Shown here: piece after piece, positions 3,034 to 26,387 of the stretch | How positions within the stretch are numbered: position 1 is the stretch's first letter | Layout of the letters: the number at the start of each line of letters is the position of its first letter | Assembly (NCBI GenBank): GCA_000934665.2 | Contig: KZ538920.1 | Location: 1-40,172, forward strand | DNA: 40,172 bases | Direction of reading: 5' to 3' | From: Catajapyx aquilonaris | Taxonomy: Eukaryota | The notes under the pieces: generated by a model | Told to the model about the DNA's origin: nothing | Databases searched by the model: none | Seen by the model: only the letters and a program-made list of their open reading frames with translations | Program-made: the position numbers and the translations under genes

Positions 3034-3116
3034 CTGTTGTATAGAGAAAAATAGTGTTCAATGCTAGTTCACACAACTTACTGCATGACAGCTACCCAGA
3101 ATTAAATAGTACTCAC

Positions 3117-3412
3117 AAAAGCCTAGGAATTTGCAGTAACCAACGAACATTGGATGAGTACATGTCATTAGTGACAGCCCACTTGGCCAGCTTGTCCCAT
3201 TCTTCTGGAGAATTTCCATAAACAGACAGCCTGAGCTCTGCATTCTGATACTTGCTCTCTTCAAAGTCTGACATCACCTCTTTGATGATCCGGGCAAAGT
3301 ATTTGCCATGAATGTAATTGTCTGTTTTCATGAATACCTCCCTCAGTCGGCTCTCACCAATGGGATTATACTTGGCATTGAACTTATCGAAACGGTGGAA
3401 TGTGTTTCTGTC
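3117..3412 (-). CDS. AMPD2: AMP deaminase constant exon 7
   Basis: taacag|..|gtgagt. Encodes [32 protein letters not shown]...[14 protein letters not shown]...[10 protein letters not shown]. Confidence 0.96.
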
Positions 3413-4064: not shown

Positions 4065-4332
4065 GGGAAGCATGGTGGAGTAGTGGTTAGTGCCACAGCC
4101 TTCCACCTCTTAGGCCCCGAGTCCAATCCCTAGGTCAGACAGGGCTTTCTCATATTGACAGAGTTTAGATGGGTTCTCTATGGGTTCGTGTGGGTTTTCT
4201 TGGGAGTTCTTCCCATTTCCTTCCACAATCTAAAGCCATCACAGCACAGTTCATTAATAAAGTCGAGAATTAAAAAGAGGATCCCCTAAGAGATCACAGG
4301 CCTGTCATGTAGTACAACGTATCATCATCACC
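4065..4332 (+). mobile_element. tRNA-derived SINE in AMPD intron
   Basis: A-box TGGAGTAGTGG, B-box-like GAGTCCAATCC, central GGGTTTTCTTGGGAGTTCTTCCCATTTCC, (CAT)n tail; degenerate direct flanks catctcaaagaact / cacctcatggaacc. Confidence 0.7.
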
Positions 4333-4621
4333 TCATGGAACCTACATCTGAGAGGGAGTGCGCACCTTTCATGCCATCCTGTATAAATTCAAGAAGTGCC
4401 ATATGAAGGTAGTACTTTACATGATTTTGTCTTGGTGTGCTGGCCAGGAATTACATTTGAAAAGGTGTATGACCATAAAAATAGTTACATGTAGCCCCAC
4501 TATTCTTCAGATCTGAGGTTCTCTCAAAGTGATAGAATCTCCAGATTCTTATGATAATCAACATACAGCCATGATTTCTCATCTTCAACTTAATGATCAT
4601 TCAACTTAAAATATCACTTAC

Positions 4622-4816
4622 AGCATGCACATCAAGCATATCCACAGTTAAGTCATATGAAGTCAGGTTCATGGACTGGAACACTTCTTTGAGCGTCATT
4701 TCTTTGCCTCCATGGCAACATACCACCTCATCAGCATGGTTCTTCAAGGTCTTTTTAATGAATCGCAGCAGGTGCTTCTGGTTCATGCATGATGCCGCAT
4801 GTATGTGGGTGTCAAC
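4622..4816 (-). CDS. AMPD2: AMP deaminase constant exon 6
   Basis: aaacag|..|gtaagt. Encodes [22 protein letters not shown]...[11 protein letters not shown], containing the HxH zinc ligands. Confidence 0.97.
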
Positions 4817-4881
4817 CTGTTTTCAAAGTAATGAATGGAAAATAAGCCCTTTGGCAAAAAACTCATAATTCAAGAAAATAC

Positions 4882-5011
4882 CTTTCTGATGTTATAGAAA
4901 TCCCTATGAGGTACCAACTTTTGGGCTGTCAGTTCACGCATTTCATTTAATAGGACATGAAGCTGGTATTTTGATGATAGGTAGGTCAATCGCCGGTAGC
5001 AAAATGACTTT
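4882..5011 (-). CDS. AMPD2: AMP deaminase constant exon 5
   Basis: ctgcag|..|gtattt. Encodes [43 protein letters not shown]; followed by a 65-nt intron. Confidence 0.96.
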
Positions 5012-5090
5012 CTGCAGATTGATACAGAAATAGAATGAGTTCAGAAGGTCTCTGCATGTAAAAACATTTGAAATTCTGCAAGCAACTTAC

Positions 5091-5310
5091 AAGGGTCCAT
5101 CGGCAATCATAGCACACATCAAATTCATGTCACTGACAAATGTGGTGAGGTTTGGAAAATGGTAGTCATTAGGCTCATTTTTCTCTAAGGCCTCAGCATC
5201 CCGAAAAACTTGGTACACTCCATCAACCATCTTCAGAATATAACCTTTGTCTGGTAGAAACTCACAACTAAAGGCATTTCCCACTGATTTAGGGGGGTGA
5301 ATAGGGTGGT
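5091..5310 (-). CDS. AMPD2: AMP deaminase constant exon 4
   Basis: tttcag|..|gtaagt. Encodes DHPIHPPKSVGNAF...FVSDMNLMCAMIADGPL. Confidence 0.94.
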
Positions 5311-5348
5311 CTGAAATAAATATTCATTTGAATAGCAATGAGGAAAGA

Positions 5349-5397
<49 letters not shown>
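5349..5397. repeat. (ATT)n microsatellite
   Basis: About 16 tandem ATT units, read directly. Confidence 0.95.
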
Positions 5398-5398
<1 letters not shown>

Positions 5399-5968
5399 GG
5401 AACGGATTTTTAGGTTCTAAAAAACTCTCTAATAGGTAGGCATTAGGCCCTGAAAACAGTCAAAATAGGCTCTTAATCGGCAGTAAAAATCAAGCAGGCC
5501 CTAATTTATTTTCATTTCTACTCAATATTACAGCCTATTTCTGGCCATGGAATTTTGCAGCATAGTAACAAACTAGCAGTTGTTCCATATTTTCGTTGGT
5601 TAATCGCAGTTATTCAGCGACGCCTGTCTAAAAATACATTTCTACACACTAAAAATAACCTTATGACATCACACAAACCAACTGGATCATACTTAAAAAG
5701 TGAAAGTCTTCTCCAGTCAGTTCATCCGACATGCCTACAGCTTCTTCGCCCTTCACAGATGGAAGTGGGAAGGATGAGTTGAACAGAAAACCCAAAGAAC
5801 TCTCAAAACTCTTACAAAACGCCGTCAAAAAGGTGTTAATAGGCGATAGTAAGCCATTTACATTCCAATGCCCGAAATAGGCAATTTTAGGTTCTATAAA
5901 ACTATGATTTTTGAGGTCCCCTGCCTACAAAATAAGAAGTAGGTAAAAACCTAGAAATCCATTCTCTA
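5396..5968. mobile_element. Degenerate non-autonomous TIR element (MITE)
   Basis: Imperfect terminal inverted repeats taaggaacggatttttagg / cctagaaatccattctcta, with repeated subterminal ATAGG/CCTAT motifs. Confidence 0.5.
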
Positions 5969-6970
5969 AATATTATAGTGACACATGCTGCTCTCCCAAT
6001 GAGTGCAGTCTATGGAAAGAGCATTTCCACAGAGGAAGGCCTGCAGAGTTGCAAAGAAAGAACTACTGTCTATCTGTACAGCAAGATCTTGTGATTGACC
6101 TCTTGACGATTACTTTTACAAACCATTGACAATGTCAGTTTTCTATTTTCCGCACCTACAGGTGAGGCAGCTAACAATCAAAATGTACAATATAAGAAAC
6201 ATTTAAATTAGTCTGATAGCATAGGTATTAGAATGACGGTGTGAAAAAACCCAGTTGCTCTCTTGAATTTTCAGAAGCCCATCACCACAACATCACAGTG
6301 TGAAGTCATGAAATTGTGATGGTGATATTATTTACACAGGTGACAATGAGTGAACATGAAAATTGGGACAGACTGTATGTACATATTTGCAAGACTATGG
6401 TACGACCATCACACCCACGTCTCCTAGTGGAGTTATCAGTCACTGCCACAATTAGTACAGGAGTGGTGGAAAGGAATGCATGTGCAGTTGAAGGTATTCA
6501 AACTCCCTTGACCCATTTTGATAGAATGTATTGATTTTTCAGAAAGATTCAAAAAATGTTAAGTAAAAAAGCCACGGACAAAAAAATCACTCCGAAAGCT
6601 GAAGAGGACGATAGTGTTAATGGAACAAATAATGTGTGCATAATGGCTCAAGGAGCCAACACCATCCAGCCAACTATTAAATTACAGATGGCTGAGATTT
6701 TTTTGGTAATACCTGTCTCGTTATGGCCACTGGTGTGCCTTTCCCTGACACCTTCAAGAGACAGAGCACATTAGTATCGCAACTATGCATAAAATCCTAC
6801 AGTATACCCCGCTGCACCAAAAATTGCTTCCTTTTAAAAATCAAAAATATCGAAATTCAACCACATAAGAGGGACTAATATGGAGAGCAAACACTAGTCA
6901 GTGTGGTACAAAAGTGACTCTGGTACCTTGATGCAATGTATTGCACAGCTATCATATAAAATGACTGTAC

Positions 6971-7157
6971 CTGCTAGAGTCTTCCTGTCCTCATGGATTA
7001 TAGGTTCAACTCCCTCAACCGAACATCCATGCACAGAACGTAGGAATCTGGAAGTTATACTTGGGAAGCTCTGATGTGAAAGTGCAAGATACCTCTCCCG
7101 GATGCTCAATGCTTGCACAAGTAGGCGAGATGCTTGCAGCAGATCCTCCACATATAC
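6971..7157 (-). CDS. AMPD2: AMP deaminase constant exon 3
   Basis: tgacag|..|gtacag. Encodes VYVEDLLQASRLLVQALSIRERYLALSHQSFPSITSRFL...HEDRKTLA. Confidence 0.93.
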
Positions 7158-7337
7158 CTGTCATTACAAGATTATGCCATTAAATCAATGCCTAGAAATG
7201 TTTCATAGAGGCTTGATGGGTGTATGTATTACTGTTGCCAAACAAATTAAGACACCTCATATTTCAAGTCTCCAAGTTCCCTGATGTCACTTGATGTAAC
7301 AGGAACATACAGCAGTGTCATGACATCAAGTGCTACG

Positions 7338-7782
7338 CAGGGTGAAGGAATTCTCGCAGACAATCGCCAGGTAGACTGATAGTGCTCGTAAAACTAATAA
7401 AGGGATGTGCAAATATAGTTTTGGGCGCCTATGCGTAGCTAATGCGTACAGCACCGTTAAAGTGTAGTGTTAGATGGTGCCATATGAGATAAACAAAGGA
7501 AAAGTGCATGGGTGTCACACCCAGATTCTTACTCTGACGTGATTTGAATCCCTATTGCACATGGACGATGCGTTAGGAGACCAAGGCCGGATTATTTGGA
7601 GGTTCTCGAGCTGACTTTTGCATCTTTGGAACTGGCGAAGCAGATGTGACGTCACGAAACTTTAATGGTGCCGTGCGGATTAACTACGCAACAGAGCCCA
7701 AAAATCATTGCACATCCTTATATTAGTTTTGCGAGTCCTGTCAGGTTACCTGGCGATTGTCCGCAAGAATTCCTTCACCATG
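7338..7782. mobile_element. Tc1/mariner-type foldback MITE (family A, uninterrupted copy)
   Basis: ~125-bp imperfect TIRs starting CAGGGTGAAGGAATTCT; right end followed by TA; colinear with the copy at 23897-24849. Confidence 0.85.
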
Positions 7783-8014
7783 TATATTCATACTGAAACC
7801 AATGCAGCACCAGTTTTCCAGAACACTCGTTGGATTCTTTAACATTAATCACCTTCATCTTTCCGACCAATATAGTTGACCCTGTAATACAAAGGTGACT
7901 GAACCAATAGCAGGTCTGTGAAGGTGGATGAATTCAGTGCTTATCTCCCTTTAGGAATATATATGTTCAACTTGGTTCCATGACACTGAAGGTAATCCAT
8001 CGAGTCAAACTTAC

Positions 8015-8171
8015 GCCACTGGTGTCCTCCCCGCTGACAGACACTCGCTGGAAATGAGGCACAAAATCATGTTCATCCAAACGAAAGGCATTCCCGGCTT
8101 CAGTCTCATCTTCAACAGGCCCCACAGATGGTTCATAGTGACTCTTCCTTTCCTCCAAATCTTTGGCGGCC
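8015..8171 (-). CDS. AMPD2: AMP deaminase constant exon 2
   Basis: ctgcag|..|gtaagt. Encodes AAKDLEERKSHYE...DEHDFVPHFQRVSVSGEDTSG; the FQRVxISGE-type motif is typical of animal AMPD N-termini. Confidence 0.93.
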
Positions 8172-9028
8172 CTGCAGACACAATGGGATACAGATGGAAA
8201 GTCATTATTAGCAATTGTCAGCTATTAATAATGCAACCATGCAATACTGATGAAATGGAGGCCAAAGAGACACAAATTGACGTCATCACAATGAAAGACA
8301 TCACTGAATGAACCTCAACTTTATGAATTAGATGGGAGGTTTAAAAGGGGGCTTGTCTTCTTTCTATTGGGGCACTGTGCAGCAGAAAGTTTGATTAGCA
8401 GGGAGGTTCCTGGTGACATGGGGCTGTAAATAGCGCTTGTTTTCTTTGGTGTTCAGAGAAAGGACCCATTGTTTTTCTCAGCAGAGCCACACCCGCGAGT
8501 CACCCTGACATGTTGCCTAATTTGCGCCTGCTCTCATTTGCAACAATCCTAAATGTATTGCATGCTCGCTAATACAATTAACCCAATTTGGTAGATGAAA
8601 AAATCTTTGACTCCCGTGATGACGACAACGTGACACATTGCATGCATCAGAGCACACAGCATCAAAGTATGAATGCACACTTACTGCTTTTCTACTCCTT
8701 TGCTACTGCCATATAGTAAGGGAATATAACAAAGTGTTAGTACGTATGTGTCATGATTTTAGACTATTGTGTTACACATGTCACATGTGAGCAAAAATGA
8801 ACACAGTTTGAGAATCACCATGGCTGCTAACACAACCACTTCTGATAATAGCCAATTTCTTGCATGTCCTCAATAGTGGCACTTTGCGACATGATATCAG
8901 CAGCCCGAAAAAATTAAGTTTAACAATTAGGGAGAGTACGTGGGTAGGGACCAGTGCACGCTAAAAGCTTAATATTGTAGAGACTTGATCGGGAGCCCAC
9001 CACCCCAGCACATGTACTGTAAACCCAC

Positions 9029-9242
9029 CTGACACTCAGCTGCCTCTGAAGGGCCAGCTTATTCTCCAACTGCTCAATCGGGAACTGCGGAACCTCATAT
9101 GGGGCCGAGATCTCATTTGCGAGGTTGCCCCTGGACAGAATGGTCCCGGCCAACTCCTCGTACTTCTCGTCCAGGTTTGCGTTGCGTACGATCCTTGGCA
9201 GTTGGAACGTCGTCGGGCTTCCGTAAGTCGGACTCTCGCTTC
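9029..9242 (-). CDS. AMPD2: AMP deaminase constant exon 1 (shared phase-1 acceptor, no Met)
   Basis: tttatctttcag|GA..AG|gtgggt. Encodes (G)SESPTYGSP...EISAPYEVPQFPIEQLENKLALQRQLSV; phase joins the exon at 8171. Confidence 0.9.
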
Positions 9243-11235
9243 CTGAAAGATAAAAAAAAAACACCGTCCAGATTAGACACTTCCAACCAACAGTTTTAAA
9301 ATCGGCGCCACACCGTCCACTAAACTAATCCACATTACCGTACTTGAATCCCTCAACAGCCGAGCATCTTTCTTGACCTGCCGCAAGTTACGTAAGCAGC
9401 GTGTAATTATGAACGTGATTGTAGAGCAGATGATAGTAGGTGTTGGCGCGTAGGGCTCTGGTGCTGAACTGTACGGGCCCCAACCGCTGCTTCCTCTACT
9501 CATAACGATTTTATTTTGGCCCCTTTTGGGCCTTGCGCAAGGACACACTCTCCTCTACACATGAAAATCTAGAAGCATTTTGACGTCACTAACGCGCCGC
9601 TTTTTTATGCATATGAATCGTATTTTTTTCTGCTCCTCTGACCCTAAGGAGCCAGCTTGTGGCCTAGCCAAAACGGTCGTATTCGCGAATATTACATGGG
9701 TCGTAAATTTTAGATGCGTCGCCAATGCATGTCTCAGCTACTTCCTCGTCAAGCAGGTTTCCTGGAGTACACATTTGTCACCCTTACGTAATCCGCGGTT
9801 TACAGTCAACACTTATGGTAAACTGAGATGCGAAATATATCATTATGTGGGCAGCCAAATGATCAAAATATTATTCTTCAAAGGGTTGGTACAGGCCAAC
9901 AATATTTGTTTATAGTAAGTTGACTGATACACTTGACACCCACACCGAACAAAAAGTTCCAAGGATTAGTTCCGTCACTCTTGTGGAATTTATTACCGCG
10001 CCACCTTTGGGAAGCATTGTTCTCATGGACCCAACAAGTTGACCCCAAGCCGCTGGGTGACATTGCATCATGTTTGTTTATCCCAGCAAATTGCTTCCTC
10101 CGTATCCGAAACTGCGCGCCTCCTCAACGGACTGGGGGAAAAAAAAAAAATCCGAACATGAATTATCGCGACGAGGCTCATTTTCGAGAAGTTGAGTTCG
10201 GAAATCGATATTCCATATCAGAATATTGCTGACGCCACTATTGGTGCGACCTCCCCATTTTGCTTACAGTACGTACTTGACAAGACCGTAATGGAAGAAG
10301 CCCTGCCGCCATGCGCCTTTTATTTCTGCCTCATAAAGAAAGCAACGGGCGATAAAAAGGTTGCTCAAAACGCAACATTCTTCTATAGCATGAGAATAAA
10401 AACACAGTATTGATACTATAGGCACTAAAGAAATGTCACCAGTAGATTTTGAACTAATCATTAATTAGGAGAATACTGTAACACTCAAGTGTATACTCAT
10501 TATTCCGATAAGTCAATTAGTACCAGATAATGTATCTGCAATGTATACACTCAAAGTGATGCGCATTCATCCATTTATTTACTATACCAAGCGCGGTGCA
10601 AAGTACTATCGCACATATTGGGCAACAAGATTTACTCCTGCTTATGGAGGATTCTAGGTTTTTTTTTTCCAGTCTCTCTGGTGCAATAGTCGTGTAATTT
10701 AGCTTCAGAGGACAAGCCAAGGGCACTGTATAAGGAAAATAATGTATGGAGAGGGGGGAAACAATTTTCGGTGCTGAACCTGTCACGTTTTCCATTAGTT
10801 TTAGGAAATGTGATAGGCTGCGCTTGGCCTGCAGGCTGCGACTAGCATAGAAATTCGTGCATTGCAGAGGGATGCTAACAATATCTCATCAGTTAACTGC
10901 AGCTATTTCCTGCACGCCAATAAACTGATTGATACTTTGTGTGCACCAGCATTCATAATAGACTGTACGTGAGTCGACATCAAATTTCGCCCGGTTATAT
11001 GCAACTCGAATACCCCTCCTCGCATGCAGTGTAGACCAATCCAAAACGCATCGGGGCAACCAATTTGTCTGCAAACTGTCCCCTTCCATGTACCGCCTTA
11101 TCGCTTGGTATGCAGATGAAACCCATAGCGACAATTCTAATGAGATTACATCATGAGGGCGATAGGGCCATGGCCCATCCTACGACACTCAAGAGAAGAA
11201 CAATGGGTGAGGTCAAGTTGTCTCGCTGAACTCAC

Positions 11236-11458
11236 CCACAATGGTTCCAAACATGCTGGATTCAGCATACTGACTGCATCCAAGTAGCCAGAGCATCAGA
11301 TGCTCCAAGTTATTCATATCCGAGTCTGTTTCTCCTCGGGCCATCATCTGCTTGCCCAGGTCATTGTCATCATCATCACCGTCGGGAGGGCCATGCTCGC
11401 TCCTTTTGTCCCATGGTTCGCCATTTCCGGCACAGTCGGCCCCCAACCCGACCTCCAT
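11236..11458 (-). CDS. AMPD2: Candidate alternative first coding exon A of AMPD
   Basis: aagATGg after an in-frame stop; 74 codons + G then consensus donor GTGAGT. Encodes MEVGLGADCAGNGEPW...SSMFGTIV(G); phase 1 fits the 9242 acceptor. Confidence 0.7.
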
Positions 11459-13642
11459 CTTCGGGACACTCTATTGTGACCTTCTGCTTTTATTCAGAAC
11501 CTCCTCCCTCCCACACGATCCAACGTGATGCTGCTGCTGCTACCACCGATGACCTCCAAGACTGGTCACAGATTATCAGGAAGACTCGGTGACCTCACAG
11601 GGGCTCCCTTGAAAACGACTGAGGCACGTTCCTATAAAATGGTATTGGCCAAGAGCAGGGAGAAAATCAGCTGGAAGTCGGCCAATATGGCGAAACAGTG
11701 CGTGGTGATATTATTCCCCCATATCATTCGATTGTTGACTCGATTTTTTTTTCTGACTATTTTGACAGGACCCGGTTTGACACCCACGGTACTACCGGTT
11801 ATAAATAGCTAACTGTATGAAAAATATACGAGTTACTCATCCAATAGCGATAACAGCAAATCGGGGGGTCCGATCTGACAAAACATGATATTGGAATGCG
11901 GTGACATTGAGGTGCAAATAATGGAATCAGGGAGTGAATCAAGGTCAAATCGGCCAACTCCACCTGCCATACCAGTCTGAGGATAAACAATTCCCCGCCC
12001 CTGGCCAATCCACTAAAAGCACTGAGCGAACCAGAGGGCTCCTGTCAAGAGCAGCGCCCGATCTCAACTAAAGTTTTGTCACGCACGTCACTCTTGTTTT
12101 GTACCATTCCTTACAAGAGGCTGGTCACGCATGCTCCATACATTGGTTATGCACCCCACACCACCCCATTCCTTCCAATCTTCAACCACCGACCAATGGT
12201 ATTGTCTCGGGGCGTCCACGCCACTGGCACAACTCCAAATTTGCACGCATCTTACGCACAGATCTTCGGACCACCTGGGATGAAGATGGTCCTCTTCCGT
12301 CCAAGTTCAGCCTGTTCTTCCGGTATTCTTGGGAATCAATGTCCTCTGTAGGAATCCCACTCTTCCAAGGCTAACTCCACCGATTTTCTTGCTGGAAAGT
12401 GGAGCACTCAGTGTCTGTGGTCCTATTCTTGCATAACGTTTGTGGCACACCTTGGGTGAACCATGTCCTTATTTGACCCAAATTGGCGGGTCAGGGCATT
12501 CGACGTTCTCTAAGAATAGACGACTCCAATTTATACGTGCCGGACACGCTAGTGTCACACTTCGTTGTCTTCTGAGGACCGGGTCGTCGTAGGTTGGCCA
12601 ACTATATACCTGAATAGCCCTCCCTTTATGGTGGTAAAGCTAACATGCCATGATCCCTATCACTATAATAGGGATCAGACTAATTACGTGCAAGAATATA
12701 CCGGCGTGTCGTTTCTGTGGTATTAAATCCCCTGCCGAAGGTTGCAAGGTCAAGGTTATGTGACCACATGCGACGTCAGAAGGTAATACCGATACACATG
12801 AACGGCGTCGTTTGGGTAAGCCACTCAATCACGGAAAGGGGTGGGGGGTGCATTGGTCTCACGAAACCCCATACAGTACACGACGTCAATCGCATTGCCA
12901 TCACATTTTTGCCACCGGTAAGTCGCTACTCTACTATGGTCTTCAGATATGTCTGGCCGGAATGGTAAATCCAGAACAAGTGGTTATTCACATATGATTA
13001 ACATCTTGTTCAGGATTTACTGGGGAAGTGTACACACGACGAACTTCGTGTATTAGCAAGATGCAAGCTTTCTCCATTAAATCAGAAGCCGCTCTTGAAT
13101 TTCTCTCGTTCTCTGATTGGACACAAAAATTTGCTCATTGTCATCTTGCTCCCATTGCCCTAGTTCCGACATGACGTGACCTACCCCCCGCATTTTTGCG
13201 AAACCCGCCACTTCCAAACAGCCTTGGCACTTGCTAGAAACCAGCGGTGTGTCCATTCGCAGCCATTTGGAGCGCCACTGTGATTCATCAAGCGCCGAGG
13301 TAAACAGAAATAATGTGCCCAGCGCTGACTATTTTCGGACTAACCCTTTCGCCATACCCTTACACACAACTTCGCAGTTTTTCGTCTTTTTTTCACGGAG
13401 AGGCCACACACCGGAGATAACATGTAACACGCAACGTCCGGTGCTATGCTAACGGTATCTGAAGATTATTTACAGATCGGATCATTACGTAATCCATAAG
13501 CTATATATCACGATGGGAGTATGATCGCCTCCCGTAACATGCTATACTAACCTCTACTGGCGATTAGTGGAAAAGGTTCTTCCACCCTTTCCTCCGAATC
13601 CGTCTTGGTTAGAACTGCGAAACCACGGGAGCTCATTGTTAC

Positions 13643-13799
13643 CTTCCTGAAATTGGCTTAATGTCGATGAGCAAGTACGGCGACAACACTGGTAGCGCAC
13701 TTGGAGCGAATATGCGCACCTCGCACTCACACATTCGCCAACAGGGGTACAAAATGTGGACGTGGGTGAGTCCGGCTGCTGACAAAATGCCAATTCCAT
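13643..13799 (-). CDS. AMPD2: Candidate alternative first coding exon B of AMPD (Cys-rich)
   Basis: cacATGg; 52 codons + G; donor AAG|GTAACA, phase 1. Encodes MELAFCQQPDSPTSTFC...QCCRRTCSSTLSQFQE(G). Confidence 0.5.
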
Positions 13800-14396
13800 G
13801 TGTTCTTCTGAGGATACATCAAAGGTGCCCGTACGGCTGATTTATTTTTGACACAGATTGTCATCAGGTTGGTCCATTACCCGCTCTGACCCCTGATGGT
13901 GCAACGCGCTTGTTTACCTCCTGGTTAAAACTGGTCATGTGATCTAGCGGTCACAAAGGCGGTGAACTTGGAACTGTTGTATTCTCAACCGCGTGCTCAA
14001 CCCAATTGATATTGATCACAGTGCCGTCATTCGGAATGACAATGTCACCCATGGGAGGAATTGTGCTTGCCGCCTGGGAAGCTCCCTGCCGATATATTCG
14101 AACGCAGCCCTTTGAGAGACGTCAAATGTGCTACAGTAATTACAATCAGGGAACTGAATTCAGGGTCACATCCAAGAGAGGTTGCCAGAAGCTACATGCC
14201 AGCCCTCACTGGCACCTACCCCAACAGGGATAACGAAGAGCCCCTTGTCAGACCTCGGTTCAATCTGTATTTTCAACATGCTCTTTGTAAGGTACACTCC
14301 CTATAGCAAAAAGTAGTTGAGTGTAAAACCGGTGATGTCTCTGCTCAACTATAAAACATCGACATCACCACTTTTACACTGAACTTTTTACACATA

Positions 14397-14595
14397 CAGT
14401 CAAAGGACATCCTAGAATGCACTTATGGAACCTCCCACTTTTCAAATTTCTATGGAGATGTCCTCACGCAAGAGAAAGAGTAAACAGTGTCCTTTTGTTG
14501 ACACTGTTTACTCCTTTGTTGCACGAGGTCATCTCCATGGAGATTTCAAAAGTGGGAGATTCTAGAAGTGCATTCTATAGGATGTCCTTTGACTA
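14397..14595. mobile_element. TA-flanked ~200-bp foldback MITE
   Basis: Almost entirely self-complementary (cagtcaaaggacatccta... / ...taggatgtcctttgacta; centre gagtaaacagtgtc..gacactgtttactc); TA on both sides. Confidence 0.85.
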
Positions 14596-15846
14596 TACCG
14601 TTGCAATAGTGCATCCACCTTCGAATGTTATTATTATTCTTCGAGTTTGGTCAACTTTTCGCAACGGACCCTGCTATCTGGATGGTTCTACGGCTTTTTT
14701 TTTGGGACAGTTCCAAACCGGCTACATTCAAAGCATCCAGATACCGGCTGTGGACGGACAGACTAGACATATAATTGCCACCTTGGAAAGCCAGTTTCAA
14801 ATTTGCGAGCGAGTTTCCAAGCCCACAGGCAGTCCAAACCGCGCTATTGATCTTCCCTTAATACATTTTGGAAATTCGCACATCCATAATTGCCAGGCCG
14901 GTACTTGGAACCGGGCTCTCCTCTTCGTATGGGAATGCATATAATTTTAACCCCTCGAATGATGTTGCGGAAACAAGCTTCGCAGCTTCTGAGAATACCT
15001 CGCTGTCGCCAAAATGTTTCTCCAACAGCTGATTCGTCGGAAGCCTCTCATCTAAAATTAACAAACCGAAGGACGCACACCTGTCCGATACGCTGAATGC
15101 ATTCCCATACCACCTGAAATCCGTTTAAAACGTCTGTAGATGAGCCAGCTGAGTGGGAAGCGCATCGCATCTAATTACAAGATATCTGCACTTAGTCTGT
15201 CACATTTCCAACCCCACATTTCCTCATTTTAGTCCTTTCATCAGTCTCGATCAGTCTGGCATGGCCTTGGCTCTTTTCCTTCATCGCATAAAAACGCCTT
15301 ATGTCACCTTGTTGACAGAACGGTATACACCCGGGGATACAATAATGAATCCATGGGATCAAAAGTCGACTGGTTGATCGAAAGGCGTCCAGGAGTTATC
15401 TGGGTGCCCATATTTTTCTTCACACTTCCGGCAAGCAAAAGTGGGCGACCTGATGAAGTTTATGAAATTGAGCCAAAAATGGGGGAAACGACCTGCAGCA
15501 GTCAATGTCCCAACTCGACCTACAATAGAACGAAAAGCTCAGGACTCTATATTCAGCCTCTGAATAGACCCCTTGGTGTCCTTGGGTCTTGGCCTCTTCC
15601 AATCTTGTTTTCTGGTGCGCATCTTTTCTTCGCATTATCTAGTGTCAATGCCTTTTCCGCAAAATGTGCCAATATCCACCTGTTTGGCTTCAATTTTTCT
15701 GATAACATCCACGTGACGCATTTTCTACTAAGGCCCCTCTCTTATCGCTGACAGATAATGATTTTATGCTGGGAATATTTCTCAAGGCATTCCGGATCCA
15801 ATTACGATTAGGTGAAATCGATCCTAATAATGAGCTGAATGATTAC

Positions 15847-15913
15847 CTTCTTCATCTGAAGAGTTGACCACGTCTCCGTTGTGCGCCATACCGTTGCAAT
15901 TGACTTCGTCCAT
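15847..15913 (-). CDS. AMPD2: Candidate alternative first coding exon C of AMPD
   Basis: acaATGg; 22 codons + G; donor AAG|GTAATC, phase 1. Encodes MDEVNCNGMAHNGDVVNSSDEE(G). TCAGTT initiator ~60 nt upstream (15970-15975). Confidence 0.65.
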
Positions 15914-18900
15914 TGTATGATGCGGATGACACGTTGCCACGCACGTGCACAGGCTGGTGTCTCAGTATTAACTGAACTATTCTGACCCAGGCGGTGAGGT
16001 GCTGTTGGGGGGAAGCCGGTTGGCCAATCTTGATATCTTTGCCAAGTACACCTGCTGTTGCTTTCAGTATACACGAAATGCGCCGTTATAGTATAGGGGA
16101 GACCTGTGCTTCAGGTGCTTGTATTGTGGGCGCCTTCTGCATGCGTGTTAAAGTGTGATACCACATGATGAAAGGGTTGGATAGGTGTGATCATTAAAGT
16201 TGGTTGGGTCGATCTGAGAGTGGTGAGGTGGCCAGACCGCAATGTTTTCAATGTGCAGGCTGTGTGGACCATTGATCTGGTCATGGGAGGCTGAACAGAA
16301 CTACTGTCTGTAGCCTGGAGGTTAGGTAACTAATGCTGCAGTGTTGCTTAGCTGATGCAGATTTGTAGGGAATTCTAGGCTTCTGGCGCCATAGGGATGG
16401 ACGTCATTATTAAAATTTCATAGAATGTTTCGCAAGCAACAGAGGATGAGCGGGGGCTTGCAGAAGGCGTAAAATCCACTAAAATTGAATTGAATGAATA
16501 ATGTGAATATGCCGCAGGGACACTTTAAAAATCAGCTGCGCATACTGTATGGTGTACACGAACATAGCGGTTCTGTTTTTCAGGATAATGCAGTACAATT
16601 AATATTCAGTATGAGCAGTGCTAGTACCTCGCGATTGACGGAAATTTAAGTCGACTGTTCTTTAAACTTGCGGTATGACTCAATTTGTGATTCGGTATCT
16701 TGGTGCAAAACTTTCATGAATATGCTGAATATGTTGAACACGCGAATGTGAGTATAGCATAACCTTTCTCTCAAACGAGTCATTTATTATTTTTAGACTA
16801 TATATCCCAAACAATAATCGCACTTCCACGTAAAAAAAAACATACAGGAACTACAGGATGTGCGGGTGTGATTTGATAGACCACACTTCCCTATATTCAA
16901 CTTTCTTTCCCCATGGGAATATGGTGCTGGAGTAATACGTTTTAAATTTACTCGCCCCCTTTTAGGAACCCACCACAGCGTAAAATTGAGTTACCTGTAT
17001 AGGCGATACCAGCTCCCTGCAAACTCTGACAGCACAGTCAGCTATCCTGTAACAAGCTTGTTTTAGCAGCCCTTTGTTTTCACCCCCTCACAATCAATAC
17101 TGCAATTCATTGTTTGCCCGCATCTGATAATATTACTTTACGTACTTTTTGACAAACTCCCACGCAGTATACAGTACCATCTGAAAGCTGCTCTCCGTCT
17201 ACCTGACACACCTGTACGGCTACAGGTGTTACCCCTCTGTCAGTAATTGAGTACTGCCCCCTTCGTGTAACTTCCTCCTCCTAGCGAAAGCACGAAACCC
17301 CTTCCAGATGCATGACAACTAGCACTTGAGATATGAGGAGCTATCGGCAGGTCCAATTAGGATCAACTCGGCTCTAAAAAATAGACCCAGAATATTCAAA
17401 ATCAGGCCTCCCTTCTGATACTCCGAGCCCGGAACATATTCAATGGCCCTATATCTACACTACGCACTGTCATTATTCCTGCTTGCAATCAGCCACTCAT
17501 TCGACAGCATCAATGCCTCATTTATCTGCCACATTTTTAGCCTCCCACAGTGCCTGTAGATATATATCTCAAGGCAACCTAACTGATGTCATTCTCTTCG
17601 CCAGCAGGAACTTTCGTCAGAGCGCTGGAGAATAATAGTCTTCTTTTGTCAAGTTTACTACCCGTGCAGAGATAATATGATTTGTGCCAGCCAGCATTTA
17701 CGGGCTTCTGTCGAGGAAACGGCCGATACTGCAGAGGTAGCTGACTCTCTACTGTATAATGACTTGAGTGATTGTGCTTAAGAAAACATTCCCAGGAGAA
17801 GGCATCCTGTTTTCACTGAAGGATGCTGCGTCGTCCTCTTTTTTTTTTTGTCCTTCTAACTATCACACTCCATTGGCAAGTAATGCTGTAGTGGCATGCG
17901 GTGGGTATTGATTCGGTCCAAAATGGTTGGGGGGACCAAAAAGAGGTCTGCACGACCCCTACAACTCTGCACTGCGGTATACTACACTGTACGTCAGAAT
18001 TACGTGCTCTCTGCATGTACGAATAGGACGGTTCTGCGAATAACCTACCGATAGTGCGAAGAGTGTTTATCTTTATTGCCTGCGAATTCTACGCCACACA
18101 TCATTGACTCATCAATCATTTCATTACATGAAGTCATCCTGCAATTGTCGAGTAGAGAATGATGTGCAGCTACTCTTTGTTACGTAGTAATATTTGGTAG
18201 CAGAAATACTGTCGGCTGCTTGTAAACATCGGGGTATGTACAAACGGCGTGTCATTCATTGTTGGGCTATAATTAACGATAAAAGAAACGTTCGGTTTTT
18301 GGTATGCCGATGCCAGTACCGCTGTCACCGCAGATCAGGAAAAAAATCTCCGTTTATATAATTAAATTCCAAATTAATTTGAGATTTTCTCCTTAATTTA
18401 TTAAAACTGGCCCTTCAGTCCGTTTGCGTGATCAATGGTACATCCATAACAAGTGGTATTTACGTATGATTACCCACTTGTTCAGAATTTACCACTAATC
18501 ACCCTAATTTATTATAGATCTCTGATTATGTATACAGTATTCACAACACATAATCTGGCATAAATATATTACGATTTATTTGCATTCATACAGGCTCGCA
18601 TAATACACAGACATAGCTAATTTTTCCTCCTCAATTTGTGTTGATACATGCTGGTCCTTAGTAACTGCAATTAGCTCTTGGTAACAGGGGCGTCATTTCC
18701 TCCTAAAATATTTCCATAGTTACATGCACCAGGACCACACAAAATCCCTTTGTCTCCATTGCATCTAGGGTCCTTCACACATAGGTTCCACCCTACTTAT
18801 ACATAGACACATGTTTTACCATCAAATTTCCTTCCAAATCTTGTAGACTCCTGGAACCTGCCCCTGATCAATCAACCCGTCAGCACCCTCGCAAAACACC

Positions 18901-19177
18901 ACCCATTGAATTGCATATCAGCACAGACATCGCACCTTTACCCCTGCTCCCAAATAAAAATAAGCAGGCACCAATAGGGGCCCCCACTAATAGGTTGAAG
19001 GCACCGCCCATGTAATGACACCCCAACGCCAAACTGGCTACCAGCCAGGGCCACCAACATGTGGGCAGTAGCCTGCCACAGATGTCTCGCATTTTGATCA
19101 ACCACCATGCATCAGCATTGCAATTTTAGGCGTACTACCTGACAACTGCCAAGAAAAACTTGTTGCTGTGTACTGAC

Positions 19178-19316
19178 CTTCCCGAAGCATATCGTTGCTG
19201 GCACCACTGTAGCTGCTGACACTGTCTGCCTCAGAGTCTTTCGGCATGTAATGTATATGCATATGTGCCGGTTGAGAGTTGGTCTGCTGGCTGCTACCTT
19301 CCACTCTTTTGGCCAT
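19178..19316 (-). CDS. AMPD2: Candidate alternative first coding exon D of AMPD
   Basis: cagATGg; 46 codons + G; donor AAG|GTCAGT, phase 1. Encodes MAKRVEGSSQQ...DSEADSVSSYSGASNDMLRE(G). Confidence 0.62.
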
Positions 19317-19642
19317 CTGGGGTGGTGCAATAGTCTGGTTGGAGATCCGGAATGTAACGTACCGGTCCGGAGTGGTATTGCAGGTCGCTAGTTGACGTGA
19401 GCTGACATATTGCTATCCCTGGATCAGGGTGGTAGGTGGCGATCTGAAAGACCCGGGCGGGAACAGACGGGTTAAGGGTCAGTATGGGTCTAGTTTAATG
19501 CAGACGGATGGCCAGAATTGACATCCCATAGTAAACTGAAATTTGGAGAGGAGGAACATGAGAGATGATGTGTTTTTGGAATTTTGGAGCGAAATGAATG
19601 TCTGTCAACCCTGGTGATGATCGATAACCCATTTCCCATTAC

Positions 19643-19745
19643 CTGCGTTTGTTTCTTTTTCTTTTCTGTCTCTCTCTCTCACGCTCTCTCTCTTTCTGTT
19701 GTTTGGATTTGCTCCATTGCCTGGCAGTTCTGGTGAGAGAGGCAT
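19643..19745 (-). CDS. AMPD2: Candidate alternative first coding exon E of AMPD
   Basis: Textbook GCCACCATG; 34 codons + G; donor CAG|GTAATG, phase 1. Encodes MPLSPELPGNGANPNNRKRESVRERDRKEKETNA(G). Confidence 0.68.
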
Positions 19746-20327
19746 GGTGGCACCACTGGGTGGATTACGAGGCGCAGAGGCACGGACGCAGAGGCATCTA
19801 GGGGCAAGCTCATCACGAAACAGTCTGTCGCGGTCTGTCAGGTACCGTCACATTTCCCTTTAAAAAAAAGGGTGTTGTCAGCGATGGAGGAGACCCCAGA
19901 TTTAAAATATGATTTCTATGTGACACATGATATTCAATGAAATTTAATTCTTTAATTTAACTACAAAACTAAATCAAACAGATGTTCAAACCGGTTCGAA
20001 CCAACAACAGCTCACAACTCCTTGATATTTCTGATATTGCATGAGGATGACACCAAGCACCAAGGGGGTGGGCCTGTGAACACTACAAGAAAGTGGTATG
20101 CAGGTGTACCAACATACCACTTGCATGACACTGTGTTTTTCCTATACTAACGCAATTGGCCAATCACTGTTTACACCTTCTGGATGTAGCTGACAAGTAG
20201 GCCTACTACAGTACAAAAATGAAAGAATGGCCACCAAATTGTAAGGACACAAATGAAGATGGATTGAGAATGACAATATTCAGCACTGATAGAAGTATCT
20301 TTATTCAACATTTTATTGGGGTAGGGT

Positions 20328-20496
20328 AATGGCCTATTCTCATATATCAGTGGGAAATGTCCTGTCTGCTCAGTGGCAAGCCTATTTGCAACTGGGGACA
20401 GTTGAATTCACTGGTTGTCATGGAAACATGTCCAACAATGATTCCCTGTTGCAAATGGGCTCGTAACCTGGCATAATGGATATGAGAACAGACCAT
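20328..20496. mobile_element. Degenerate foldback MITE containing an X-box-like motif
   Basis: Inverted ends atggcctattctcatat / atatgagaacagaccat; inner pair gcctatttgcaac / gttgcaaatgggc; GTTGTCATGGAAAC at 20414-20427. Confidence 0.55.
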
Positions 20497-20748
20497 AATG
20501 CAAGTGGTGTAGTCCTATAAAATACAGAAGGCTTAAGCATTGGTGATCACACACTCATATACTATCACATGCCCTTATGAACGGAAGTGCAATGAGAGCA
20601 AGTTTACATTCAAAGTCCAGCATTGGGTGTATAAGCACACCTACATACACCTCTCACTACACCCCTGGATGTTACACCAGCCATGTAAGGTATCTGAAGT
20701 GCAAGGCACGCAAGGCAGTAAAATCATGTATATATGCCCAACTCATAA

Positions 20749-20911
20749 AGGCCCATTCACACAGGCCGTCGACGGTTTTGGTTTTTGGTCTTGTCGACGC
20801 CGCGGACCAATCAGAACGGGCCCTCACGTAAACAACGCATCATGGTTACCGTGAGGGCCCACTCTGATTGGTCCAAAACCAAAACCGTCGAGGGCCTGTG
20901 TGAATGGGCCT
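20749..20911. mobile_element. PIF/Harbinger-type MITE
   Basis: TIR AGGCCCATTCACACAGGCC / GGCCTGTGTGAATGGGCCT; TAA on both sides; internal foldback. Confidence 0.88.
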
Positions 20912-21290
20912 TAACATGTATTCTGTAACCTATTTCATACACGGACGGAATACTGACAATACCATACACAGTACTGCAGTGGAAATGTGCACATGTCAAT
21001 ATATACGATGTGTGCATTTAGCATCTTATAAGCATATAACTACTGTCATTTATTCTATATCCTACACAGTACATGTGCAAGTGTTTTGCACAAGCACACA
21101 TGAATGCTGGAAGGGGTAGGAGAGAGAGCTAGAAGTACAAAATAAACGTATCATTGTATCATTACAGTGCTCCAAAACTCTGGCAAGTTGTCCTATTAGA
21201 ACTCTAGCTGAAAACAATGGGATATAAAATACATGGCAGTCATGAAAAATTATTACAATAATCACAATTCACAAATACAAAACAAATTGA

Positions 21291-21535
21291 AGGGGTCGGT
21301 GCAATTGCCGACCCTCACCCACCAAATGACACAAATTGAGTTAAGCACACTTCCATATACTACACTCATGTATCTAATAAAATACATTGAAATTGTGCAG
21401 TTTCTGCCATCGGTCACTGAGAAATCAAATGAAATAAGTCACATGGTATGGGATGTATATGGCCTCTCAAACTTTCAACTGCAGTTTTCTCAAAATCAGG
21501 TTTGGGAGGATTAGGGCAGTATTGCACCGACCCCT
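21291..21535. mobile_element. Non-autonomous TIR element (possibly Kolobok-like)
   Basis: TIR AGGGGTCGGTGCAAT / ATTGCACCGACCCCT, flanked by ttga / tcaa (degenerate TTAA). The superfamily assignment is inference. Confidence 0.65.
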
Positions 21536-21553
21536 TCAATTGTAAACTAGAAT

Positions 21554-21662
21554 GGGTGGAATTTTCGTCTCACTGGTAGTTACTGCTAACTTAGCAGTAC
21601 CAGTGTAATGCATTGGTACTGCTAAGTTAACAGTAACTAGCAGTGGGACAAAAATTCCACCC
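21554..21662. repeat. ~109-bp foldback (mini MITE)
   Basis: gggtggaatttt..gttactgctaacttagcagtacca / tggtactgctaagttaacagtaac..aaaattccaccc; a related right end occurs at ~26729-26758. Confidence 0.8.
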
Positions 21663-22246
21663 TATGACTGCTGCATGTTTTTGTGCTGAGATCAAGAAGT
21701 AGGTACAGTTCCAAAGAGGATGCCAGAAAGAGGAGGGACTTGGAAGATAGATGAGGAGGACCATAGAATGGAAACCAGGACATAACAGTCATAGAAGCAT
21801 ACCTATGCATTGCTTTGACTTACCTTGGACTTATCAGCTAAATGATATTCCTACAAAAAAAAAATCTTTGGGAAGTGGGGGACTCGAACCTCTAGACATT
21901 TCCACCACAGTATATGATGGAATGAGGAGAGCAGCCTTTCCAATAGAAAAAAAAAGTTGACATCCTTTCAGAATACCATATCACAGAAAAAGGGAACGGC
22001 AACTTGAGGGTCACTAAACAATAAACATGTGCATCCACACCAATGATCTAAAAATATGATATTCCTATATTCCTTAAGAGAAGAGTCTATTTGGCTGGCA
22101 TATTTTTCAATAGGTCATGCTTAACATTTGTAATTCACCTACAATATTACACTTCATCTACAAAATTGTTGCGATTAGGATATCAGATTACTTGCCACAT
22201 AAAATAATATGAAGGAATGTTTTAGTGGCCCACTGACATGGGAATA

Positions 22247-22638
22247 CAGGGTGTATGTGAATTCATCTGCCAAAATGATATGGGCAGTAGAGGATGCGTA
22301 TGGAAGAGGCATGGCATGGGTCCGAAAGGCAGGCGATGATCCATTTTGGAGATGTTGACCTTTGACATTGGTTATGTCTATCCTCACAAGTGTGGATAGC
22401 CCCGTGCACACCTGCAATGCTGGTTGCTGGGGCCAGGGGCTTGCACTCCCAGACCCTTGCTCCACCAGCCTGGCCTGGCAACCAATGATGGAGGCATGTA
22501 CGGGGGTATCTATACTTGTCAGGATATACATTGTTGATGTCAACGTCATCGCCAGCCTTTCAGACCCATGCCATGCTTCTTCCATACACATCTCCTACCA
22601 CCCGTACCATTTTGGCAGATGAATTCACATACAGACTG
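22247..22638. mobile_element. Tc1/mariner-type foldback MITE
   Basis: TA-flanked; TIR cagggtgtatgtgaattcatctgccaaaatg; imperfect self-complementarity over nearly the whole 392 bp. Confidence 0.87.
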
Positions 22639-22930
22639 TATGTATAAGGAATCTATCAACCACAGCAGCAATTTACAAAGGCTGGATATAAAATGGTGGC
22701 AAAACTATCATCTCATGCTATGAACATCAGATGGTGTAATTGTGTCTGGTGATAGTTGTATGTTGTGTAGCAAGTCAAGTGGCAGTTTCACAAGTTCACA
22801 GTAGTTGAATAGAATAGCAGAGGCTGTCAAGTTGTGTTAGCTGGCAGAACTGTCTTTAGACAAGTTCTCCAAGACTGAGCAACATGCAGGGATAACAATT
22901 GAGGATGTTGGGAATGTTCACTAGGTCTTC

Positions 22931-23150
22931 CAGGGGCGGATCCAAAAACGGAAGAAAAGGAAAAAAAACGGGGGGAAACAATTCACAAAAATCCTCTAGA
23001 ACAGTGCAAAATTGCACTGTTCTATGGGTTCTTTTCCTTTTTGCCCCAAATTTGGGGTCGAGAGGAAGGGTTGTGACCTTGAACCGAAAAAATTTTCGCC
23101 TGCGGCAGGCCCTGCGCCCCCACTAGAAAAAATTGCTGGATCCGCCACTG
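22931..23150. mobile_element. hAT-type MITE with perfect 8-bp TSD
   Basis: TIR CAGGGGCGGATCCA / TGGATCCGCCACTG; TSD AGGTCTTC at 22923-22930 and 23151-23158. An internal segment recurs inverted at ~39922-39955. Confidence 0.9.
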
Positions 23151-23942
23151 AGGTCTTCAGACAACAAATGGTGTTGCATCATTGCCATGACATACTGTGA
23201 CACTTGGCAAAGTTGAAAAAAACACTGTGAGGAAAGCGACTTCATACAAGACGCACTATTTTAAAGCAACAGGTAGCTCTCTTGGGCATCTCAACCAGAA
23301 TGGCTCTACTGATGTGTCTGTCTCCTTTCAGAGGTGTGGCAAAAGGTTGTTAAAATACACAAGAATAATACAGGTGATACCAATTTTTCGCTGCTTCACA
23401 ATTAACAAAACCTTCAAAACACTAACACATTTCTGTCACAAAGCATATGAGTCCAAACACGCAATTATGTTTTTAGTGGTGCAATGTGGCAGGGTGCATA
23501 GATATATGCAGTACTGTACTGTATTATTGGCCTTTGCCCTCCCCAAAGTGCAGTATTTGTTGTTACACCTACACTGTACTGCAGTTCTTGCCAAAGAAGG
23601 GAAAGGAATCCTCAGAACCTGATGGCCCTCAACCTGCAACCTCCTGTTAAATGTGTGCATAAAATATTTCCAATACTCAGCATTAATAACAGCACATTAG
23701 AACTGTCTGTAGGAAAATTTTGGAAACTCTGGAACCTATATTGTTCACTTACATTATAAGTATCATTTTATGCCAATTCACTTTATGCTATTGTGTTGCT
23801 GGAAATAATTTCCAGGGTACAATGGGTACCACCTGTAATAATAATCTGGGCAGTGCTTGACCTCTCCAAAGGTTGTAAACGTGGGAAGAAATTATACAGG
23901 GTGAAGGGAAACTCGCGCATAATTGCCAGGTAGACTGATATA

Positions 23943-24266
23943 GCCAGCTGTTCCCCAAGAATGCATGTCTGGCACCTCCCACTTTTCAAATTTCCACGCA
24001 TGCTCCAAGGAGAAAGTGAGGTTACCAAGTGAAGCGAACATTATCTCATTAAAAACATTACACTGGCAAAGGAAATATTATTCAGGTGATTGTGCTTTTC
24101 ATATGTAAATTGATATTACGCAATGATGCATTTTTGTATGTAATTGTTTTATAAAGTAACAACATTCTTTCAAAAGCATCACCTTTGCCATCTGGCAACC
24201 AGGAGTCGTTTGTGAAAATTTGAAACGTGGGAGGTGCCAGATGTGCATTCTCGGGGAACCGCTGAG
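23943..24266. mobile_element. Nested TA-flanked MITE
   Basis: ~50-bp TIRs (cagctgttccccaagaatgcatgtctggcacctcccac / gtgggaggtgccagatgtgcattctcggggaaccgctg); absent from the host copy at 7338. Confidence 0.8.
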
Positions 24267-24445
24267 TATAGTACTTGCATAATATAGGGATGTGCAATTA
24301 GTTTTGGGCACCGTTGCGCAGTGGGCGCCTATCAGTGTGTCAGATGGTAGAATATGAGGTAAAAAAACAACAAAGTGCCCGGGGTCGTACCTGTATTCTT
24401 ACTCTGATGGGATTTGATCGCTTATTGCACATGGACGATGTGTTA

Positions 24446-24640
24446 GGGGCAGTACACATATTACGTCATCACATTTTTGACGTTTTTGAACCCCCCTCCC
24501 CCGCCCTCCCGGTTTTTGGTTGGTTTATTCATCCCAACTTGGACTCCCTTCCCCCTCTCGTCATCTTTGGTCATCAGGTAGCATACCCCCCNAACCCCCC
24601 CCCCCCCCCCTCGATGATGACGTAATATGTGTACCGACCC
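24446..24640. mobile_element. Nested PIF/Harbinger-type MITE
   Basis: TIR ggggcagtacacatattacgtcatca / tgatgacgtaatatgtgtaccgaccc; TTA duplicated; the host copy at ~7572 has a single TTA. Confidence 0.85.
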
Positions 24641-26387
24641 TTAAGGGACCAAGCCCGGATTATTCAGAGGCCCTCGAGCTGACTTTTGCTTTGTTGAAAC
24701 TGGAGGAGCAGATGTGACGTCATGAAACTTAGAAGGCGCTGTACACATTAACTACGCAACGGCACCCAAAACTAATTCACATGTCTATATTAGTTTTGGG
24801 AGTACTATCAGTCTACCTAGCAATTATGCGCAAGTTTTCCTTCACCCTGTACAGAAGGGACATAATGCTCAATGTCCTGGTTAAAATACGGTACCATACT
24901 TTCATAGAGGAGTTGCCACTATTTCACATCCAGTCCCAGTAGCTTGGTGCATTACATAAATACTATCTTTTAAAGGCACTCATTAACTGCACTCATATGA
25001 GATAAGCCAAGTTACAGTTACAAGGAACTCAACCAGGAAAATACACACTTCTGCTAACTACTACACTGCTCAAGAAGTCAGTAAGCTATCAATAGTTTGG
25101 GTTGCCGTGTTCCTTCTGAGAATTGACTTATCACATATATGCTACTAAAAAGTTTAACATTTTGAAAATACAGTGCACCTTTCAATGATTTTAGAGGTTA
25201 TGTGCATGATAGTACATTTGCTATTAATCAGTAGCATTCTGACATTCATCAATACTACAAGTGAGAAAGTCAATCAAAATGTGGAAAGGCAACCAACCCT
25301 AAGGTCTAAAGTCAAGGAATGACTCCAATTTTACACTTATCACTTATATCAGAAACCTGCCCAAAAGTGAGGTAGAGCAATCTTATGAATGTGCTCTGCA
25401 TGTGTGCAGTAGGGGGGAAAATTACCTCAGGGCATGACATATTACCTTTTGAAAATCTAAAATATTAAAACCTGTCAGAGTGTGTAGCACACTACTGGAA
25501 AAAAACTTCCTTCTACCCTGGCAAGCAGTACCTATGCATGAGTTGGTGAAATCATGTGGGAGTGCAGGTTGATTCATGCATGCTTCCACCTGTGTCCACT
25601 TGCCTGGCTGCTTGGCTCTGCTTGAGAGGGAACCAGGTTATACAAGTTTATCCAGTAGTGTACGTACATGGGGTGCATTCAGTAGTCCCTGAGTGATGTG
25701 CACTTGTGTTTATACTCTGACACTCACAAATCCATGAGAGTGCCATTCCTTCAAATAAAGTGAAGAACAATGTACTATCTGTCAAAAAAAAAAAGTCCAG
25801 CATGGGACAATCTAACCGCCCAAGGTTAAGTCAATGGAATATACTCACAAAAATGCTGATGGTTGTATAGCATCAGGATATATCCAGCAGATTTTTTTTT
25901 TTTTTTTACAGATAGTTTACAGTACTTCACATGCAGAAGTATTTTACATGATTTGCAGGTTGACAATGTTGGTTGTCTATGACTCAGTAGTTTGTCTTGC
26001 ATGCTCTCTACCTGAAGGAAATAAATGCACTTTTCTCATACCATAACATGCTGCCCCATAAAATGAACTACATTGTACAATGCTAACTTCGTCCTGTTGT
26101 CACTCAGACTATTGTAACTCATATATGTAACTCTGTAATAAAAATAGAAATTGTAATGCAGCATAATTGCAACTAATGTTATAATGTAATAAAAAATAAA
26201 TTAAATGTAATATTATCTCAGGTAAGACTTTGTTCTACATGATGCCAGAATCAAGTTACAACTGTTGCTGGGAAAATTTTATAGTGTGCAGTGCATTCCA
26301 AGTGAAGTGTCTCTCAGCGTTAGCAATTAGTTGGCACTAAGATGTTTATTACAAAGCAAAACAGTAACTATGATAACCCACACAAAA

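Follow-up and report, generated by a model that had tools for sequence, protein, structure and literature searches.

Probable alternative first exons joined to one AMP deaminase body in Catajapyx aquilonaris

Introduction

How does an AMP deaminase begin when the first constant exon of its gene contains no start codon? This question is raised by a stretch of 40,172 nucleotides from Catajapyx aquilonaris (contig KZ538920.1, positions 1 to 40,172, of assembly GCA_000934665.2; this whole stretch is referred to here as the window), whose minus strand holds what is, by protein homology, the 5' half of an arthropod AMP deaminase gene. An initial annotation had proposed that five unrelated short exons, L1 to L5, form a multi-promoter cassette of interchangeable beginnings for this enzyme. 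Our analyses suggest that several small first exons are each spliced to one shared AMP deaminase body, a reading to which we assign a probability of roughly two in three, and that the list of those exons has to be revised.

Under this reading, an 11-kb CpG-rich domain (9001-19900) would carry several unrelated ATG-initiated first exons, each presumably with its own promoter. Each leader would stop one base into a codon and join the single acceptor at 9242, giving Gly followed by Ser-Glu-Ser-Pro, and leader exons downstream of the active promoter, having no acceptor of their own, would be lost with the intron. The products would have a common catalytic body and differ only in their 22-74 N-terminal residues. 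The predicted exon set consists of 13636-13552, 11458-11236, 19316-19178 and 15913-15847 and, less surely, 19745-19643. We infer the transcription of these leaders, their separate promoters and their splicing from the DNA sequence.

Results

The AMP deaminase body and its common acceptor

A database search with the first constant exon matched 91 proteins, the full-length ones among them being AMP deaminases with the domains PF00962 and PF19326. Best matches were to the springtails Orchesella (71% identity), Folsomia and Allacma (both 68%), after which came stick insects, locusts and termites at ~50% identity. By these comparisons the database genes nearest to that of the window are those of springtails; none of the database proteins retrieved with this exon came from the species itself. 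When the Folsomia and Zootermopsis enzymes were aligned to the window by tblastn, nine to ten collinear exons were mapped down to position 1153 (47-93% identity), and the gene extends past the window start. The features of the body are as follows.

9242-9029, minus strand: first constant exon, 214 nt (frame, boundaries, protein matches and tblastn)
9243-9267, minus strand: common acceptor, a pyrimidine tract plus CAG (sequence; a GA-first acceptor is also present in the related genomic contig L001)
8171-8015, minus strand: second constant exon (tblastn and frame)
1153-7157, minus strand: further constant exons of the catalytic body (tblastn segments)
7157-6975, ~5320-5090, 5010-4879 and 4822-4622, minus strand: constant exons, first group of tblastn segments
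3412-3119, 3032-2904, 2334-2170 and 1449-1153, minus strand: constant exons, second group of tblastn segments

The GA with which exon 9242-9029 opens completes a split codon; Ser-Glu-Ser-Pro (SESP) follows, and the exon ends in phase 2 and runs on into 8171-8015 as an open AMP deaminase frame. There is no Met in the first three constant exons, this one included. Recomputation confirmed what had been described for this exon, namely that it is Met-less and has a phase-1 acceptor at 9242 at which G|GA gives Gly before SESP. The locus thus has the body homology of an AMP deaminase gene and the arthropod-type SESP exon after a split codon, and it also has the common acceptor on a constant exon without a start codon that alternative-first-exon genes have.

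The layout upstream of SESP in related species

In all arthropod AMP deaminases retrieved, conservation starts at SESP, and the part preceding it differs among isoforms of one gene. Together, 140 proteins provided 91 distinct leaders of 13-96 residues directly before SESP. Gly is the last residue in 65 of these leaders and Arg in 22, endings that follow from the codon being split as x|GA. Unrelated leaders before the SESP exon were found in springtails, a cockroach, termites, locusts, moths and a mantis shrimp. Folsomia candida has four distinct leaders among 12 proteins, the seven isoforms of Periplaneta include five leaders joined to SESP and one joined to the second constant exon, and Zootermopsis, Schistocerca and Oratosquilla have several leaders each. 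One class, with the pattern Met-Cys/Ser-x-Arg-Gly, accounts for 24 of the 91 leaders and has members in the springtails Orchesella and Folsomia as well as in cockroach, termites, locusts, bugs and moths.

Among metagenome contigs, 21 related loci were identified by a scan. In three genomic contigs among these (L001, L003 and L004; 62-73% identity), the constant exon is preceded, at a distance of a few hundred bases, by a phase-1 leader that starts with ATG. The transcript-like metagenome contig L002 (1-2425), which has a 778-codon AMP deaminase frame, has an in-frame stop and no ATG before SESP; this could mean that the first exons of some relatives are non-coding, or that the contig is chimeric at its 5' end. 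In termites, cockroach and Anabrus there are also isoforms (P0130, P0136, P0152, P0171 and P0172) whose leaders join the second constant exon, the SESP exon being skipped. A search for a counterpart of those leaders in the window intron 9033-8174 gave no match at a score of at least 25.

Candidate leaders in the window and their chance level

All five exons of the initial annotation were recomputed as claimed on the minus strand, with an ATG start, a length of 3n+1 and a final G before GT, and the ATG of each is the first in-frame ATG after a stop. They are given here with a sixth, adjoining candidate, 13636-13552, which had not been listed previously.

11458-11236, minus strand: L1, 223 nt, 74 codons + G, donor GTGAGT; the leader nearest to the constant exon
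13799-13643, minus strand: L2 (described as 'Cys-rich'), 157 nt, donor GTAACA
13636-13552, minus strand: leader absent from the earlier list, 85 nt, 28 codons + G, donor GTTAGT, start context AACAATG
15913-15847, minus strand: L3, 22 codons + G, 67 nt, donor GTAATC
19316-19178, minus strand: L4, 46 codons + G, 139 nt, donor GTCAGT
19745-19643, minus strand: L5, 34 codons + G, 103 nt, donor GTAATG; at the 5' edge of the CpG-rich domain

The frequency with which such stretches arise by chance was determined by counting first-ATG, G-ending, phase-1 stretches of at least 60 nt with a GT donor in 9243-20000, those with at least four of six donor-consensus positions being classed as good, and comparing the counts with 500 second-order Markov simulations. 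The minus strand has 38 such stretches, nine of them good, compared with 22.9 +/- 6.1 and 3.9 +/- 2.1 in the simulations, and the observed counts were reached in 1.8% of these. On the plus strand of the same stretch there are 22 (one good), and on the minus strand of 20001-28000 there are nine (none good). Consequently, the candidate set as a whole exceeds chance, and the excess amounts to at least two upstream candidate exons that start with ATG and have a fitting phase and donor. The nine good candidates are L1-L5, 13636-13552 and three others (13423-13345, 15165-15081 and 19092-18936). As about four of the nine are expected by chance, no single one is established by its ATG, phase and donor features alone; a caution that individual candidates could be accidental had already been given with the five exons.

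A further ATG stretch of 22 codons on the minus strand, 17534-17468, ends in A, which would give Arg at the junction. It has the donor GTGCGT, a codon score of ~0 and TCAGTT 52 nt upstream, and loosely resembles a short Periplaneta leader.

Exon 13636-13552 belongs to a conserved leader class

Exon 13636-13552 was exposed when the known leaders were aligned to the six-frame translation of 9243-28600. From its first Met to its last Gly it aligns with the Met-Cys/Ser-x-Arg-Gly leaders, and a profile built from 17 of these placed it at the top of 1088 six-frame segments with an E-value of 0.023 (the next being 2.3), in an alignment that spans only model positions 1-13 of 30. Its end-to-end pairwise score against termite and cockroach leaders was matched by two of 150 shuffles. 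The same profile found no match in 1789 control segments from the upstream flanks of 12 related metagenome loci, where the best E-value was 3.7. On this evidence, 13636-13552 is very likely to be a real leader exon of the Met-Cys/Ser-x-Arg-Gly class. Likeness of leaders across species is limited, in the window, to this exon, and it is also the only one for which conservation in relatives was seen, by comparison with annotated leaders of other species.

Proximal leaders may form a second shared class, with a core resembling Leu-Leu-Trp-Leu-Leu that is present in Periplaneta, Anabrus, Folsomia and contig L001 and perhaps also in L1. The likeness of L1 to the proximal leaders of these four consists of a motif of ten residues around a Trp; its E-value of 1.3 is not significant, and three profile tests did not raise it to significance.

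Codon usage distinguishes coding-like from non-coding-like candidates

A codon model was trained on 767 codons of homology-supported exons, using as the stricter background the 9-20 kb domain with the candidates masked. Candidates were scored by codon log-likelihood ratio (LLR) and compared with decoys, which were ATG-started open stretches of matching length from the same domain. In leave-one-out trials, 10 of 11 true exons scored positive and the true frame was the best of three in all 11, while a 422-codon open reading frame (ORF) of the neighbouring gene that had not been used in training scored +0.21 per codon. Five candidates were coding-like.

L1: codon LLR +15.9, reached by 0/11 decoys; sole positive frame of six
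L4: codon LLR +7.8, reached by 0/39 decoys; best of six frames
L3: codon LLR +4.5, reached by 2/133 decoys; best of six frames
13636-13552: codon LLR +3.3, reached by 4/102 decoys; best of six frames
L5: codon LLR +3.1, reached by 3/79 decoys; best of six frames

The lowest-scoring candidate was L2: its -14.8 is less than the score of any of the 11 true exons, and frame 0 was not its best frame. On their negative codon scores, 13423-13345, 15165-15081 and 19092-18936 were rejected as leaders. The division into five coding-like and four non-coding-like candidates agrees with the approximately four expected by chance.

A CpG-rich domain contains all the leaders

9001-19900, no strand assigned: CpG-rich 5' domain holding all leaders, CpG observed/expected 0.76

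The ratio of observed to expected CpG is 0.53 for the window, and outside the domain it is 0.42 (1-9000), 0.35 (19901-28000) and 0.46 (28001-40172). The domain extends upstream to just past L5 and downstream as far as the first constant exon. Directly upstream of L5 there is a cluster of eight CpGs (19768-19882). Sub-peaks near 1.0 occur at 9001-10400, 12301-13800, 14601-15200, 16401-16800 and 17801-18400, some of which have no candidate exon. The domain is presumably unmethylated in the germline, and its extent supports a transcription start as far up as ~19.8-19.9 kb while not distinguishing one promoter from several.

The initiator-like motif TCAGTY occurs eight times on the gene strand in the 11 kb and lies within 250 nt upstream of three of the five supported ATGs. 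L1 has TCAGTC 164 nt upstream of its ATG and L3 the consensus initiator TCAGTT 62 nt upstream, in both cases with no ATG between; L4 has TCAGTT 223 nt upstream, followed by upstream ATGs, and L5 has three upstream ATGs within 120 nt. The placement of these motifs is a weak hint of promoters.

Other elements of the region

There are no direct-repeat families of at least 30 nt in 9243-20000. The 11 longest ORFs on both strands of 9300-19900 had no Pfam match, and the whole window had no RNA gene by Rfam (gathering threshold) or a tRNA scan. Two plus-strand ORFs, 14336-14944 (202 codons) and 15233-15751 (172 codons), were set aside as non-coding-like, scoring -0.10 and +0.02 per codon, respectively, without a Pfam match. 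The remaining elements are as follows.

14395-14597 and 14315-14385: nested inverted repeats forming a hairpin-like, MITE-like element inside the leader region, with arms of 59 nt at 85%, 20 nt at 95% and 25 nt at 88% complementarity
20748-20912: CpG-rich palindrome just upstream of the CpG-rich domain, with 38-nt arms 97% and inner 30-nt arms 87% complementary; not an exon candidate
38654-39289, minus strand: Rap/ran-GAP exon (Pfam E-value 7e-36) of a second gene, upstream on the same strand
32101-33369, minus strand: 422-codon acidic ORF of the second gene, coding-like
28145-28522, minus strand: 125-codon ORF with a stop, a possible last exon of the second gene
24592 (one base) and 35994-36056 (63 bases): N runs, assembly gaps

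Discussion

The evidence for a gene with several first exons is of different weights for the individual exons. Besides 13636-13552, the candidate most likely to be real is L1, which we regard as probable. L4 is somewhat favoured, L3 stands slightly better than even, and L5 falls a little short of that and is retained tentatively. L2 is quite improbable as a coding exon. The conserved exon 13636-13552 has its ATG 7 nt downstream of the L2 donor, and L2 is therefore best read as the promoter or 5' untranslated region (UTR) of that exon. The kind of architecture proposed in the initial annotation is supported, in that relatives have 91 distinct leaders before SESP, the 5' domain has a CpG signature like that of a promoter region and codon usage is frame-specific and coding-like in four of the five exons (L1, L3, L4 and L5). 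What did not survive is the exon list itself, which included L2, with its non-coding score, and overlooked 13636-13552. Selecting exons by ATG, phase and GT alone resulted in about one error in two.

Several observations weigh against a multi-exon interpretation. The isoforms of the window are predicted from DNA only, whereas the X-numbered isoforms of relatives come from NCBI annotation, whose pipeline uses transcript data. When compared with the 91 known leaders, the L1-L5 peptides showed no likeness above that of their own shuffles (fractions 0.33-0.91); the resemblance of L3 to acidic leaders was no higher than that of shuffles, and L4 resembled none of the known leaders. No significant hit in the window was obtained with profiles for the remaining leader classes (acidic, basic, Trp-core, Lys-rich and Arg-Glu-Gly-ending). 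When L1 was searched exhaustively by phmmer against 1.84 billion representatives, the only hits were two repeat proteins (E ~1e-5), one internally repeated and one a TPR protein, which were judged unrelated because they aligned in several stretches. The donors of L3, L4, L5 and 13636-13552 are unlike the GTAAGT/GTGAGT type used by five of the ten constant introns. For L5, which is AG-rich and of low complexity, a reverse frame scores almost equally. Trained on only 767 codons, the codon model is small and owes part of its signal to amino-acid composition; few decoys, moreover, matched the long candidates (11 for L1 and 39 for L4). In addition, the CpG-rich domain could equally represent an unmethylated first intron behind a single distal promoter.

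The explanation that draws most from these points is that only one or two leaders are real (13636-13552 and perhaps L1) and that the rest are chance stretches in a long first intron. Some 3.9 good candidates would indeed arise by chance, L2-L5 are without likeness to known leaders and have non-consensus donors, the P-like values of L3 and L5 are only 0.015 and 0.038, and a CpG-rich domain needs no multiple promoters. However, nine good candidates were observed rather than 3.9, L4 scored above 39 of 39 decoys, frame 0 was the best of six for L3, L4 and L5, and relatives usually have 3-5 leaders per gene. We regard this explanation as unlikely, yet it is the one to be taken most seriously. Far less probable is the possibility that the stretches are transcribed and not translated as leaders, in which case they would be upstream ORFs or first exons without coding function, and translation would begin at another site. 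Contig L002, with no in-frame ATG between its in-frame stop and SESP, and the upstream ATGs before L4 and L5 are in keeping with it, but a non-coding first exon would result in a severely truncated enzyme given that the first three constant exons are Met-less, annotated relatives start within their leaders, and codon usage in the window is frame-specific. That exactly the five originally listed exons are used, L2 included and 13636-13552 not, is hardly credible: all five have the ATG, phase and donor, and the conserved leader of Periplaneta has an extended variant that indicates alternative donors within one leader region, but L2 has a codon score (-14.8) below that of every true exon, and cross-species support exists only for the adjoining 13636-13552.

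If several first exons are used, a further possibility is that the leader array is an ancient maintained repertoire and not evolutionary noise. The phase-1 xGA junction and the Met-Cys/Ser-x-Arg-Gly class have been retained in springtail-like hexapods and in cockroaches, bugs and moths alike; even so, we consider such a repertoire possible and rather less probable than not for the array as a whole. Potentially, each leader class would then confer a distinct, conserved localisation or regulation on AMP deaminase, with the 11-kb CpG-rich domain serving as a compact switchboard of multiple promoters. A more immediate consequence concerns annotation: about five probable short first exons, the shortest of only 22 codons, would be missed by ORF-based or single-isoform annotation of this gene.

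The comparison that had been drawn with UGT1A and the clustered protocadherins is apt in one respect only. In those systems, units of a promoter plus a first exon are spliced to one set of constant exons, and the variable exons are duplicated paralogues, a whole domain being encoded by each one. The splicing logic predicted for the window is of this type. In contrast, its leaders have 22-74 residues and no Pfam match and are not complete domains, nor are they tandem paralogues, since none of 15 leader pairs scored above shuffles at 0.05 and direct DNA repeats of at least 30 nt are absent.

The closer counterparts are other AMP deaminase genes, in which the variable-leader layout is already known. 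It is annotated routinely in arthropods, where the isoform sets of Folsomia candida (X1-X11), Periplaneta americana (X1-X7), Zootermopsis nevadensis, Schistocerca and Oratosquilla oratoria have the same SESP exon preceded by unrelated leaders; they share the Met-Cys/Ser-x-Arg-Gly class with 13636-13552, whereas the other leaders of the window are without detectable counterpart in them. The full-text literature listings yielded no description of arthropod AMP deaminase leaders or leader classes. For the human genes, a review describes three tandem promoters in AMPD3 (1a, 1b and 1c) and two in AMPD2 (1A and 1B) that produce different extreme N-termini, the leaders adding 7-9 residues in AMPD3 and 47-128 in AMPD2 (PMC6164516, citing Mahnke-Zizelman and Sabina 1992/1996 and Van den Bergh and Sabina 1995). 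Both the human genes and the gene of the window, the latter by prediction, place several promoters or alternative 5' exons on one catalytic body. Since this architecture is present in arthropod relatives and in human AMPD2 and AMPD3, it is the expected one for the AMP deaminase family, and the Catajapyx gene opens no new question and adds one more species to the AMP deaminases with variable N-termini. What is mildly new is that one class of leader has been kept across a very wide span of hexapods.

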